Shown piece after piece: positions 4,197 to 63,106 of a DNA stretch of 64,000 bases. Positions within the stretch are counted from its first letter, which is position 1. Every line of letters starts with the position of its first letter. The stretch covers positions 63,101-127,100 of the forward strand of contig JBNPEG010000021.1 of the NCBI GenBank assembly GCA_051117555.1, given 5' to 3'. Source of the DNA: Elainellaceae cyanobacterium (GTDB taxonomy: Bacteria; Cyanobacteriota; Cyanobacteriia; CAZCXK01). The position numbers were made by a program, and so were the translations under genes. The notes under the pieces are model-generated. The model was not told the DNA's origin and made no database searches. It saw nothing but the letters and a program-made list of their open reading frames with translations.

Positions 4197-6752
4197 TTAC
4201 GAGGACGTTAACGCCTCCATGTCGGAGCGACTTTCCTCCATGCCTTCTTCCCGCTCGACGAAATCATGCACACGATTGCGATAGTCTCGCAGGGTTTCAT
4301 CCACCCAACTCCGGTCATTGCTGTTGGCATAAAGATGTACCAAGGGTTCACCCGCATCGGGTAATACTAAGACCCAACTATCTTTATCGTGAGGATTTAG
4401 CACTTTAACACCGTCTGTCAAATCCAGCACGTCACTGGGATGAGTTTCGACCATGTAGCGCATTAAGGCTCCTTTTACCAACCACGGGCAACGCACCGTC
4501 ACGCCCTTGTGACAGACGCGAGGCAACTCAGAGCGAAGCTGACCGAGCGATCGCTCTTGAATAGTCAGCATTTCAATCAGCTTTGCGATGCAAAACATCG
4601 CATCAAAGCCTGGATGAAGCTGGGGAAAGATAAAGCCCATCTCGCCACTGCCGCCGAAGACGACATTGGGATTGGTATGGCAAGATTCCATCAGCGATGT
4701 TGGATTAGCCTTCGTGCGAACCACTTCAGCATCGTGGCGCCGAGCAATTTGTTCAACTGCGCTAGATGCGTTAACAGGCACAACCACAGCGCTCCGAGGC
4801 TGAGCAGTGAGAATGATGTGGGTCATTAGAGCCGTCAACAATTCGCCACGAATCGCGCTGCCCGACTCATCCACGAGGATCAGTTGTTCACCATTGGCAG
4901 ACACTTGAACCCCTAAATTAGCATTCAGCGCCTCAACCACGCTGCCAAGCTGGTCAAGCATGACCTCCCGATCTGCGGCAGACGGCATAATCTGGCTGAG
5001 ACTAGCATTGAGTACAACTGCGTCACAGTCAAACTTGTTTAGCAATCGAGGTAAAACAGCACCGGATACGGCATATACGTAGTCGATGACGACTTTAGAA
5101 TTGCTATTGCGAACTGCTTCCACATTCAGATGTCGCTCAAAGCTGGTGCTATAGATATCGATCACCTGGCTGGGATACACCATATTGCCGATTTCCTGAA
5201 TCTGGGCTCGACGGAAATCTTCTTTGAAATAAGCTCCCTCAATCTTTTTCTCACGGGCTTTAGAGAGCGCAATACCTTTGCTATCAAAAAACTCGATGAG
5301 AATGTGGTCAGAGCGATCGGGATGAATGCGGACGTGGACTCCCCCTTCAACGGGAAGCGTTGGCACAACTGCCCGTGCTACTGGAATTGCTGTTGCTTCT
5401 AAATTTTGGACATTGACCCCAACCGACATGAGTCCAGCGATGAGCGATCGCGACACCATCCGGGAAATGCTGCGCTGATCGCGAGATACGATCACAGAGG
5501 AGCCGGTTTTGAGCGTGGAGCCAAACGCAGCACCCAGTCGAACTGCAAACTCGGGTGTAATATCAACGTTCGCCAATCCGGATACACCCCGTTGCCCAAA
5601 CAAGTTGCGATGGGCAACATGTCCCCAAATTAGATTCATATTGAGAATTGCACCCGGTTCAATTTTCTTACTCGGCCAAACCCTCACTTCTGGGCTGATT
5701 TGGGCCTCTTCTCCAACGGTTGAAAGCGAGCCAATCACCGCACCTTCTAAGACATGTGCTCGTCGGTCAACGCGGGTTCCGCGTCCGGCGACACAGGCTC
5801 TCAGATGGGCTTCTTCGCCAATAAGCGCTCCATTCCAAACGATCGGGCGCTTCAAGTCAGCATCTGCTCCAATGGTGACGTTATCTCCGATGACCGTTCC
5901 TGGTTCAATCTGAACCCGTGCGCCAATACGGCAGTTGTTGCCAATCAGGACAGGGGAGTGAATACGGGCTGATGAATCAATTTGAGTGTTTCGGCCAATC
6001 CAGATATTGGGCGATCGCTCGTCATAATCAAACTCTAATTTGACCTTGCGATAGAGCGCATCATATTGAGCTTCTCGATAGGCGTTGAGATGCCCCACAT
6101 CACACCAATATCCCTCAGCCACATAACCATACATCGGCTCGCCTTTTTCTAGCAGCGAGGGAAACAAATCTTTTGAGAAGTCAGATTCCTGATTTTCAGG
6201 CAAATACTGTAGAACATCGGGTTCCAAAATATAGGTCCCAGTATTAACCGTATCGGAAAAGATTTCGCTACTTGACGGCTTTTCCAAGAATCGCTGAATG
6301 CGATGCTGTTTATCTGTAATGACGACCCCAAATTCGACTGGGTTGGGTACATGCGCTAAGACGAGTGTGGCTTTTGAACCTCGTTCCTTATGAAACCGAA
6401 TTGCTTCACTCAGGTCAAAATCAGTGATGCTATCTCCACTGATGACTAAAAATGTGTCATCCAATAATTCAGCGACGTTTTTGACACATCCTGCGGTGCC
6501 CAGAGGCTGATCCTCTTCGACGGCGTACGTAATTTGCACACCAAAATCGCTGCCATCCTGAAAATAGTCACGCATGACATCAGGCAGGTAATACAGCGTT
6601 GCAATGATTTCTGTAATCTGATGTCGCTTAAGCAGATTAATGATGTGCTCGGAAATCGGTCGGTTCAGGATAGGCACCATCGGCTTTGGGAGATCACAGG
6701 TTAGCGGTCTGAGCCGCGTTCCTGATCCACCAGCCATCAGCACTGCTCGCAT
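4197..6752 (-). CDS. Bifunctional mannose-1-phosphate guanylyltransferase / phosphomannomutase-like protein
   Basis: N-terminal [18 protein letters not shown] nucleotidyltransferase, hexapeptide (LbH) repeats and a C-terminal PGM/PMM fold (LFGQRGVSG). Confidence 0.9.
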
Positions 6753-32361: not shown

Positions 32362-33846
32362 ATGACAGTTGCTGCTCCTGCCAAAACAAACTACGAAGCC
32401 ATTATCGGGCTAGAAACTCATTGCCAACTCAGCACCGAGACGAAAATTTTCTCAACTAGTTCGACTGAGTTCGGCGCAACTCCGAATACCTACATTGATC
32501 CGGTTTGCATGGGGCTACCGGGAGTGTTGCCCGTCCTCAACCAAACAGTATTGGAATATTCTGTCAAAGCAGGACTGGCACTGAATTGCGAAATTGCACC
32601 TTACAGCAAATTTGACCGAAAGCAATATTTTTACCCAGATTTGCCTAAAAACTATCAGATTTCTCAGTACGATTTGCCGATTGCCCAGCATGGCTGGCTC
32701 GAAATTGAGCTGGTTGATGATGCTGGCAATCCCGTCCGCAAGCGCATTGGCATCACTCGCCTACACATGGAAGAAGATGCTGGCAAATTGGTCCACGGGG
32801 GGAGCGATCGCCTATCCGGATCAACCTTCTCGCTCGTAGACTACAACCGCGCTGGCGTGCCGTTGGTTGAGATCGTATCAGAGCCTGACATCCGTTCTGG
32901 GCAAGAAGCTGCCGAATATGCCCAAGAACTGCGGCGCATTATGCGCTATCTCGGCGTGAGTGACGGCAACATGCAGGAAGGATCACTTCGATGCGATGTC
33001 AATATCTCAGTGCGCCCCGTGGGGCAGGAGAAATTTGGCACGAAGGTCGAAATTAAAAACATGAACTCGTTTAGCGCGATCGCCAAAGCCATCGACTACG
33101 AAATTGAGCGGCAGATTGCCGCCCTCGAAGCTGGGGAGCCCATTATCCAAGAAACTCGCCTCTGGGAAGAAGGAGCACAGCGCACTATTAGTATGCGTGT
33201 CAAGGAAGGATCGAGTGACTATCGATACTTCCCAGAGCCTGATCTCGGCCCTATCGAAGTTTCGTCAGAACAGCTTGAACAATGGCGATCAGAGCTGCCC
33301 GAGCTGCCCGCAGAAAAGCGGCGACGCTATGAACACGAACTTGAGCTGTCACCGTATGACGCAAGGGTGTTAACTGACGATCTCACCATCGCTCGTTATT
33401 TTGAATCGGTGGTGGCTGCTGGAGCCACTCCAAAACTTGCTGCCAATTGGATTACCCAGGACATCAGCGCATATCTCAACAAAAATAAGCTGTCTATTAC
33501 CGAAATTGCTCTCGCGCCCAACAGCTTAGCTGAGCTAATTACGCTGATTGAAGACAGCACAATCAGCACCAAAATCGGCAAAGATATTCTTCCCGACCTT
33601 CTGACACAAGGCGGATCTGCCAAAGAGCTAGTTGAGAAGAAAGGGCTAATTCAAATTTCTGATGCTAATGCGATTGAGCCCATCATTGATGAGGTTTTAA
33701 CCAATCATCCCGACGAGCTTGAAAAATATCGGGGTGGCAAGAAAAAGCTTTTAGGCTTTTTCGTTGGACAAGTCATGAAGCAAACGGGCGGCAAAGCCGA
33801 TCCAAAATTAACCAACCAGCTTCTCAAGAAAAAGCTAGATGGCTAG
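32362..33846 (+). CDS. gatB: Asp-tRNA(Asn)/Glu-tRNA(Gln) amidotransferase subunit B
   Basis: [44 protein letters not shown] and [10 protein letters not shown]. Confidence 0.98.
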
Positions 33847-33972: not shown

Positions 33973-34008
33973 GAGGGGTGTCACCCCTTTTCATTAAAAG
34001 GTCATAAT
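33973..34008 (+). promoter_or_regulatory. Palindromic operator (HetR-box-like) plus -10 box, unit 1
   Basis: GAGGGGT-GTC-ACCCCTT at 33973-33989; CATAAT at 34003-34008. Confidence 0.6.
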
Positions 34009-34013
34009 GTGAT

Positions 34014-34061
34014 AAGGAATGAACCCTTATGTGGGAGAGTCGACGGTAGCTCTCCTTTTTT
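34014..34061 (+). ncRNA. Putative ~48-nt sRNA, copy 1 (NsiR1-like)
   Basis: AAGGAATGAACCCTTATGTG followed by the terminator GGAGAGT..GCTCTCC-T6. Homologous to copy 2. Confidence 0.55.
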
Positions 34062-34066
34062 CATCT

Positions 34067-34179
34067 CTATAGCGATTCTAAATCGCGTGTGAATTGTGTG
34101 AGTGTGCTAAGCACAGAGATGGGGGTGTAGGCCATGGAGCCCCTACATCAACGGGTTTAACGTAAGCGAATACCGCTAT
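34067..34179. mobile_element. Chimeric TATAGC-ended mini-element (family A end fused to family B)
   Basis: 34067-34102 matches the family A arm CTATAGCGATTCTAAATCGC.TGTGAATTGTGTG; 34103-34179 matches family B (31865-31957) in reverse orientation. Confidence 0.65.
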
Positions 34180-34216
34180 CACGAAAAAAATTTTTCATTT
34201 TTAAAGAAATTATCTA

Positions 34217-34252
34217 AGGGGGTGTCACCCCTCATCCCCAACATGGCATAAT
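34217..34252 (+). promoter_or_regulatory. Palindromic operator (HetR-box-like) plus -10 box, unit 2
   Basis: AGGGGGT-GTC-ACCCCTC at 34217-34233; CATAAT at 34247-34252, the same spacing as unit 1. Confidence 0.6.
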
Positions 34253-34257
34253 ATGTT

Positions 34258-34308
34258 AAGTAGATGCACCCTGATGGTCGGGAGAGTTTTATGGCTCTCC
34301 CTTTTTTT
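34258..34308 (+). ncRNA. Putative ~51-nt sRNA, copy 2 (NsiR1-like)
   Basis: AAGTAGATGCACCCTGATGGTC followed by the terminator GGGAGAGT..GCTCTCCC-T7. Confidence 0.6.
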
Positions 34309-34657
34309 ATGCCCAAATCTGTCGGCAATCCTAAACTGCGACTCTATTTACATCTAGAAGCTTTCATCACAAAGAGCTCCAGGATGGTCTTCAGATGCGC
34401 TCTATCGCAATTTTCCAATTGCGCTAAGTCTAGATAGGACGTTGGCTAGTTCAACATCGTCTCAGGACATTCCAATTTGGCAGGCGATCGCCCGCTAAAT
34501 TCTTAACCGACGGTTCTTTTTAGCCCTCTATCGTGAGTCAAGAGCGTAATTGAGCAAACGGTTAACGTCTCAGGATTCGATAACCCGAACTCAAACCTCG
34601 TAATATAGAAAATGGAATTCATATTAGTACCTGTCGCTTAAATCAATCTCAATACTC

Positions 34658-63080: not shown

Positions 63081-63106
63081 TGGGGATGGTTGAGAGGGTA
63101 GGCAAT

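Follow-up and report, generated by a model that had tools for sequence, protein, structure and literature searches.

Two tandem small RNA genes between gatB and ffh of an Elainellaceae cyanobacterium: a probable sister family of NsiR1 with a putative HetR-controlled promoter

The 64,000-nucleotide stretch analysed here (positions 63,101 to 127,100 of the forward strand of contig JBNPEG010000021.1, Elainellaceae cyanobacterium, assembly GCA_051117555.1; called the window throughout) carries two homologous cassettes in the spacer between gatB and ffh. Each is built of a palindrome, a -10 box, a predicted short RNA and an intrinsic terminator. We read them as two tandem genes of a small RNA (sRNA) family that is a sister group of NsiR1, here called the HetR-box type, with a promoter that is probably under the direct control of HetR. 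On the sequence evidence, we give this reading a probability of about 0.7. It is carried by the fit of both palindromes to the known HetR site, the conservation of the whole cassette in other cyanobacteria, the alignment of copy 2 with NsiR1, and the co-occurrence of the cassette with hetR.

In the proposed mechanism, a HetR dimer would bind the palindrome at the -35 position and switch transcription on, as at hetP and hetZ. The promoter would consist of an extended -10 element (TGn with CATAAT or TATACT) and would lack a -35 hexamer, and its product would be an RNA of ~50 nt, in which the terminator hairpin comes after an unpaired 5' end, GUAGAUGCACCCUGAUG. This 5' end is the seed found in canonical NsiR1, so that mRNA targets of a similar kind would be expected. 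Copy 2 would be the conserved working copy, and copy 1 an older duplicate which has kept its promoter and terminator while its seed drifts.

Results

Anatomy of the locus

The elements of the two copies, and the genes on both sides of them, are as follows (window positions).

33973..33989 (centre 33981), unstranded: copy 1 palindrome GAGGGGTGTCACCCCTT, putative HetR operator, centred near -35; from sequence
34003..34008, + strand: copy 1 -10 hexamer CATAAT, without an upstream TG; from sequence and family consensus
34015..34061, + strand: copy 1 predicted RNA of ~47 nt with diverged 5' region AGGAAUGAACCCUUAUG; from alignment to copy 2 and terminator scan, ends predicted
34033..34055, + strand: copy 1 terminator stem, then six U, to 34061
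34063..34190 (approximate limits), unstranded: MITE-like (miniature inverted-repeat transposable element) inserted repeat between the copies; from comparison with G003 and G002, and BLAST
34217..34233 (centre 34225), unstranded: copy 2 palindrome AGGGGGTGTCACCCCTC then ATCCCC, putative HetR operator, centred near -35; from sequence and family consensus
34244..34252, + strand: copy 2 extended -10 element TGgCATAAT (CATAAT at 34247..34252); from sequence and family consensus
34259..34308, + strand: copy 2 predicted sRNA of ~50 nt with unpaired 5' seed GUAGAUGCACCCUGAUGG; from Rfam NsiR1, fold and cassette profile, ends predicted
34280..34301, + strand: copy 2 terminator stem, then seven U, to 34308
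32362..33846, + strand: gatB (Asp/Glu-tRNA amidotransferase subunit B); Pfam GatB_N 403.7 bits, GatB_Yqey 191.9 bits
34658..36124, + strand: ffh (SRP54); Pfam SRP54 255.9 bits

A preliminary description, made from the letters of the window, had reported two homologous cassettes offset by 244 bp in the gatB–ffh spacer, and every element was recovered where it had been placed. The CATAAT box does lie 22 bp past the palindrome centre in both copies (34003 against centre 33981, and 34247 against 34225), and the RNA lengths of ~48-51 nt given there are close to the ~47 and ~50 nt that we predict. The palindrome had been seen as well, but not that it matches the HetR site or that the genome has six canonical NsiR1 genes elsewhere.

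When stretches of 116 bases of the two copies were aligned, the mean column identity was 78%. The terminator scan flags the terminators of both copies, and 5 terminator-like sites were obtained in the region compared with 0.6 expected from shuffles. The 13-mer GGGGTGTCACCCC occurs twice in the 6.06-Mb genome, both times at the gatB–ffh locus, and its reversed control does not occur. Copy 2 folds at -16.1 kcal/mol (z -2.17), with the first ~20 nt mostly unpaired and the rest forming the terminator hairpin, and copy 1 at -12.1 kcal/mol (z -0.78), which is no better than shuffles. The sigma-70 scan called no -35 hexamer for copy 2. A 57-codon frame from the ATG at 34264 reads through the copy 2 terminator and was not taken as a gene.

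The copies are separated by inserted DNA. In the sister genus (G003) the copies are 115 bp apart without the inserted DNA, while the congener (G002) has it, and the comparison of the host (G000) and G002 with G003 shows that the spacer around copy 2 has been rearranged between relatives. The insertion begins with a dispersed repeat of ~40 bases, for which BLAST gave ~150 rows in the genome. The element had earlier been called a MITE; the insertion relative to G003 and its dispersed-repeat start make "MITE-like" reasonable, with ends that are approximate only. Further downstream, at 34460-34499 on the minus strand, a weak Rfam row for RAGATH-25 (11.4 bits, E 9.2) over the GGCGATCGCC palindrome was taken as chance.

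The palindrome as a putative HetR site

The strong HetR site of hetP is GAGGGGTCTAACCCCTC and the published hetP-promoter consensus is tnantngnGGGtcaanCCCanca (PMC4192349). The gggn5ccc core is indispensable for HetR binding according to the crystal structure and electrophoretic mobility shift assays (PMC4649674). At hetP and hetZ, HetR acts through its sites as an activator, in E. coli too (PMC13342950). The core is present in both of our copies (GGGG-TGTCA-CCCC). Copy 1 reads GAGGGG-TGTCA-CCCCTT and copy 2 AGGGGG-TGTCA-CCCCTC, each with 11 of the 12 arm bases of the hetP site, and the family consensus of 109 cassettes, aatAgGGGGTgwcACCCCtCA, agrees with tnantngnGGGtcaanCCCanca at the specified flanking positions.

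With the hetP and hetZ promoters of Anabaena sp. PCC 7120 (PDB 4YRV, 4IZZ) the HetR-box type shares the GGG-N5-CCC core, the GAGGGG/CCCCTC arms, the location upstream of the start site, the T and A that border the G and C runs on the inner side, and CA past the right arm. The known sites serve protein genes, whereas here a non-coding RNA lies under the putative site. There is also a difference in position from the hetZ site of Nodularia, which is centred at about -45 by our own count on the sequence quoted in PMC3610870, compared with about -35 in the HetR-box type. As this difference is one helical turn, both sites would be on the same face of the DNA.

The HetR protein of the host (300 aa, 269 bits with PF03574) can be aligned gap-free with the Anabaena protein of the crystal structure. 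Conserved in it are R62, H69, E71, K73, R74 and K76, which are the basic helix-turn-helix cluster and the base-contacting residues R62, K73 and E71 of the PMC4649674 structure.

Relation to NsiR1

Against the Rfam NsiR1 model (RF02399), copy 2 scores 31.4 bits (E 3.8e-4), aligned end to end over model positions 1-60, and it is identical to NsiR1 over the 16-nt 5' core GUAGAUGCACCCUGAU. The gathering score of the model is 39 bits, which copy 2 fails to reach; because of this score, we regard the HetR-box type as a sister group of NsiR1 and not as a member by the rule of Rfam. Copy 1 gave no Rfam NsiR1 row at E up to 10, and in place of the 5' core it reads AGGAAUGAACCCUUAUG. The kinship with NsiR1 suggested in the preliminary description is thus upheld by the alignment and the core of copy 2, and is qualified by the Rfam cut-off and by the lost 5' sequence of copy 1. 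The NsiR1 5' sequence given there is correct (the Rfam consensus is UGGUAGAUGCACCCUGAU, which copy 2 matches), and the genomic context is indeed a different one, downstream of gatB and not upstream of hetF.

The same result was obtained for the family. When 20 cassette loci were compared with Rfam, there were 22 NsiR1 rows with 31.3-38.3 bits, none reaching 39; from 8 of these loci no NsiR1 row was obtained at E up to 0.01. Standard Rfam annotation misses the HetR-box type because every copy tested falls under the cut-off.

Six canonical NsiR1 genes above the cut-off (40.3-56.7 bits) exist in the same genome on five contigs, as listed below from the Rfam search.

L001-L006: C48:30153-30205; C1:11613-11665; C111:31787-31840; C117:5984-6037 and 6197-6248; C189:121765-121816

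None of the six has a palindrome; about 35 bp ahead of the RNA, each carries either TCCGGA or TCCTGA. Neither of these elements, which correspond to the -35 element DIF1, occurs in either cassette copy, and the palindrome sits there instead. In Nostoc, the NsiR1 genes have individual promoters with the DIF1 motif TCCGGA at -35 (PMC9045159), and the sigma factor HetZ recognises TCCGGA as its -35 element (PMC13342950). The canonical genes of the host are scattered and have housekeeping genes as neighbours (ABC transporter, RlmN-like, YebC and HisF-like), none of them a CHAT/hetF gene, and one pair of them is tandem, 213 bp apart (C117). Likewise, no CHAT/hetF gene adjoins the two cassette copies, which form a tandem array of two between gatB and ffh. 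Among 41 relatives, 28 have canonical NsiR1 above the cut-off.

NsiR1 of Nostoc/Anabaena sp. PCC 7120 and other heterocyst formers has in common with the HetR-box type the 5' core GUAGAUGCACCCUGAU, a length of ~50-60 nt, the unpaired 5' end and the intrinsic terminator. Both come as self-contained promoter-RNA-terminator units prone to tandem arrays, and both are linked to the HetR circuit. They differ in the promoter, where NsiR1 has the DIF1 TCCGGA at -35 and the HetR-box type the HetR-type palindrome with an extended -10, and in the terminator, which is of the GGGAGAG/CUCUCC type here as opposed to the CCCC...GGGG consensus of Rfam NsiR1. The known NsiR1 array lies upstream of hetF, whereas the HetR-box type lies after gatB and has many non-heterocystous carriers. 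NsiR1 is described in a review as common to heterocyst formers (PMC6596454). Another parallel is offered by the NsiR1.1 and NsiR1.4 copies of Nostoc (PMC9045159), which also represent slightly different sRNA copies within one genome and may split targets or timing. The HetR-box and canonical copies differ in promoter class, so that a split between them would be in the input and not in the seed alone.

Distribution and consensus of the cassette family

One genome per species was scanned with the pattern GGGG-N5-CCCC-N20-36-GTAGATGCAC, and at least 120 loci were obtained. About fifteen listed matches in other phyla, together with one non-cassette match in Leptolyngbya, were rejected as chance, and the remaining listed matches share the whole cassette. 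Among the matches listed, the heterocystous carriers include Anabaena, Dolichospermum, Westiellopsis, Scytonema, Rivularia and Mastigocoleus. The other carriers listed include Microcoleus, Lyngbya PCC 8106, Symploca, Spirulina, Leptolyngbya, Phormidesmis, Limnothrix, Coleofasciculus and ESFC-1, which we take to be genera not known as heterocyst formers. Carriers that exist in culture are, for instance, Lyngbya sp. PCC 8106, ESFC-1, Anabaena cylindrica, Raphidiopsis brookii D9 and Scytonema sp. HK-05. Conservation in relatives had been proposed as a test of the module, and the cassette was found across filamentous cyanobacteria, heterocystous or not.

The spacing is tightly kept. The distance from CCCC to GTAGATG is exactly 28 bp in 109 of 144 distinct cassettes and 27-29 bp in 132 of them, and in the 28-bp-spaced cassettes the palindrome centre is ~35 bp before the seed. 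The consensus of these 109 cassettes is aatAgGGGGTgwcACCCCtCAcccc, TG, one base, (T/C)ATA(A/C)T, seven bases and GTAGATG, i.e., an extended -10 promoter; the search patterns themselves required GGGG, CCCC and GTAGATGCACCCT(G/A)A, so that these are conserved by construction, unlike the remainder of the consensus. A DNA profile covering palindrome, extended -10, seed and terminator, built from 143 foreign cassettes, recognised copy 2 with E 3.6e-23 (profile match at positions 7-103) and copy 1 with E 4.1e-10 (positions 6-102), and found no third place in the host genome at E below 0.01. Copy 2 is also 98% identical to its counterpart in the congener G002, which, next to the rearranged spacer around it, we take as a sign of selection. 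RNAalifold, run on a MAFFT alignment that is not structure-aware, gave only 7 terminator pairs in the consensus structure.

In a second scan the seed was used alone and the palindrome was not required. It returned 47 copies in 39 loci, of which 31 copies were flagged with a palindrome (GGG-N5-7-CCC), one of them (L278) apparently spurious, 5 with TCC[GT]GA, and 11 with neither; most of these 11 have degenerate palindromes or DIF1 variants. The terminators follow the promoters, since the palindrome is paired with the GGAGAGC type and DIF1 with the CCCC/GGGG type. As promoter and terminator types go together, there appear to be two lineages with one seed. Nostoc PCC 7120 is not among the 39 loci. 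The seed is found once in Table S3 of PMC4734099, in the known NsiR1 entry, and 'RNA162' of Limnospira PCC 8005 is said to resemble NsiR1 (PMC8400943).

The genomic position also recurs. In 47 of 140 loci, and in 8 of the 39 loci of the seed-only scan, the cassette directly follows the 3' end of gatB on the same strand, Nostocaceae included; most loci had only 300-400 bp of flanking sequence and some 1500 bp. By comparison, ffh adjoins the cassette only in the host genome (L092), in G001-G003, G013 and G039, and in the loci L114 and L209. The gatB–ffh synteny which the preliminary description had named for checking is therefore found in part: the gatB neighbour recurs, and the ffh neighbour is confined to close relatives.

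Tandem arrays of the HetR-box type were noticed in several loci, with 4-7 copies and periods of 118-143 bp (L124, L122, L179, L202, L230). The longest, in Scytonema sp. HK-05 (L124, AP018194.1:35483-37189), has 7 HetR-box copies with a period of ~143 bp, and there are 3-5 copies elsewhere.

Co-occurrence with hetR and the host genome

The cassette tends to occur together with hetR through the class. Among 41 relatives, cassette and hetR occur together in 25 genomes, neither is found in 14, the cassette alone in 1 (G014) and hetR alone in 1 (G035). For 401 genomes of the class the corresponding counts are 168, 188, 2 and 43; the exact pattern is in 170 of these genomes and hetR in 211, and the reversed control pattern is in none. 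This cross-table was made by hand from the pattern and hetR tables. The cassette is absent from all ten listed families without hetR.

The host itself has hetR (G000:C248), as had been suggested for checking in the preliminary description. Within a genome rated 100% complete no gene of the HetP family was found, by a search that was positive in 3 of the 41 relatives. The gene nifD is at G000:C150:25641-27050 (847.5 bits), and a second nifD-like frame at C150:29426-30694, 2.4 kb downstream, scores 348.6 bits, which is under the cut-off, and is possibly nifE. Since nifD is present the host is a diazotroph, and it is likely a nitrogen-fixing filament without heterocysts. The earlier view of a probably non-heterocystous host agrees with this combination of hetR and nifD present and HetP family missing.

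Upstream of hetR, the motifs TCCGGA and TCCTGA were observed 140-245 bp before the start codon (L091 ~1097-1102 and ~1196-1201). Such motifs would be expected if sigma-HetZ feeds back on hetR in the host. No patX-like open reading frame was recognised in the stretch inspected upstream of hetR. A search for sequencing runs that contain the DNA of the window listed two soil DNA runs with small shares (0.17 and 0.07) and no RNA run, a result with no bearing on whether the cassettes are expressed.

Discussion

Several observations weigh against direct activation by HetR and have to be set beside the evidence above. The first concerns the co-occurrence. Related genomes are not independent, so the counts overstate the support and represent an association, not a test. 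Two genomes, G014 (99% complete) and G141 (62% complete), carry the cassette without a hetR match, which is explained either by an assembly gap or by loss of hetR with the RNAs kept; G014 has three canonical NsiR1 matches besides the cassette. In the other direction, 43 of the 211 hetR-bearing genomes do not have the exact pattern, and some of them (for example G012, G026, G028, G036 and G038) gave cassette matches at the BLAST level.

The second concerns the site. GGGG-N5-CCCC is not enriched genome-wide, with 66 sites compared with ~76 expected, an estimate from base composition. The only site in the genome with perfect arms, GAGGGGTTTGACCCCTC at C54:43305-43321 (L232 9306-9322), adjoins genes without a known link to HetR, namely a 122-aa open reading frame without assignment and an Npun_F2552-family gene on one side, and two tetratricopeptide repeat (TPR) genes on the other. 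Neither hetZ nor hetP is beside it. This palindrome could be another HetR target.

The third concerns the targets. NsiR1 pairs with hetF and alr3234 in Nostoc (PMC9045159), and the HetP family, the source of a known NsiR1 target there, was not found in the host genome. Three crude scans (10-mers, RNAduplex on start regions, and the gatB and ffh mRNAs) gave no convincing target. Exact anti-seed 10-mers in the genome are mostly the opposite strands of the sRNA genes plus scattered coding matches, the best other site being C220:12762, probably within a gene. RNAduplex of the seed with 8448 candidate start regions from a crude open reading frame caller gave no outlier (best z -4.8), and the gatB and ffh mRNAs, with -16.9 and -17.6 kcal/mol, are within the background (1% quantile -19.8). 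Finally, a protein at the -35 position of an extended -10 promoter could repress instead of activate, as is discussed below.

Among the alternatives, the one that survives best is that copy 2 alone is functional and copy 1 is a decaying duplicate, at most a second HetR binding site. We consider this about an even bet. Three family-wide features are missing from copy 1, namely the seed, the CAYCCC box and the TG that extends the -10; its bases at 34000-34001 are GG, against TG in the family (of 109 cassettes, 85 have the T and 84 the G). Copy 1 is also the one without an Rfam row and with a fold that shuffles can match, and its 5' region differs from that of the congener G002 at 4 positions. 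In G003 the upstream copy is damaged differently, with one seed base missing and the T-run broken. Nevertheless, G000 and G002 do not differ over the ~39 bp of copy 1 from the palindrome through the -10, both have kept its terminator stem intact, and the cassette profile still recognises this copy. Such a division is compatible with two HetR-controlled genes of one family and refines that reading.

It is also conceivable, though unlikely in our estimate, that the RNA family is real and that the palindrome is where HetR, or some other dimeric regulator, represses an extended -10 promoter that is otherwise constitutive. The site overlaps the -35 position, an extended -10 promoter needs no -35 contact, and an action of HetR on genes of vegetative cells has also been proposed (PMC4192349). 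Against this, HetR activates at the known like sites of hetP and hetZ, E. coli included (PMC13342950), and the -10 hexamers of the cassettes, although good, depart from the consensus. Co-occurrence with hetR would be expected under activation and repression alike.

We give very little credence to the third alternative, that these are ordinary NsiR1 genes read by sigma-HetZ, with an incidental palindrome. The identical 5' core, the end-to-end Rfam alignment of copy 2 and the frequency of canonical NsiR1 in the same genomes would be accounted for. However, TCCGGA or TCCTGA is at -35 in 6 of 6 canonical copies and in neither cassette copy; palindrome, spacing and extended -10 are conserved over 109-144 cassettes; and the Rfam rows of the 20 loci, where present at all, are under 39 bits. 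Equally improbable is a hairpin with another role (gatB terminator or repeat element) followed by functionless relics: TTTTCATT does come directly after the copy 1 palindrome, the minus strand of the copy 2 palindrome is flagged as terminator-like, and between congeners the seed of copy 1 drifts (4 changes in the 5' region), but family-wide the palindrome is followed by CAYCCC and no T-run, the hairpin has only 4-7 pairs, the 13-mer GGGGTGTCACCCC is not dispersed, and seed, -10 and terminator are conserved over many cyanobacterial families.

Under direct control by HetR, the HetR-box sRNA would answer to HetR itself and the six canonical genes through sigma-HetZ via their DIF1 promoters. Since canonical NsiR1 depends on sigma-HetZ, the two types would deliver one seed with different timing or threshold. 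The distribution of the cassette and of hetR fits the earlier suggestion of an ancestral HetR-sRNA circuit which is older than heterocysts. More tentatively, and with rather less confidence than in the control by HetR, we propose that the HetR-box type may be an ancient direct output of HetR predating heterocysts and common to most filamentous cyanobacteria with hetR. Together with DIF1-type NsiR1 it may then form a feed-forward arrangement on the same targets, in which HetR would drive the HetR-box sRNA on one branch and, through sigma-HetZ, canonical NsiR1 on the other.

In our coverage of the NsiR1 and HetR literature, which was incomplete, no HetR site before an NsiR1-like gene was found described, and the HetR-box sRNA family is apparently undescribed so far. 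The role of HetR in filamentous cyanobacteria without heterocysts is an open question (PMC4192349, PMC11298460). A conserved gene with a textbook HetR-type site in 168 of 211 hetR-bearing genomes would make this question testable. If our reading is true, the family would be a direct HetR target conserved over the whole range of hetR, and, for species that form no heterocysts, a ready reporter of HetR activity. The NsiR1 seed would then enter the circuit at two points, under HetR directly and under sigma-HetZ.

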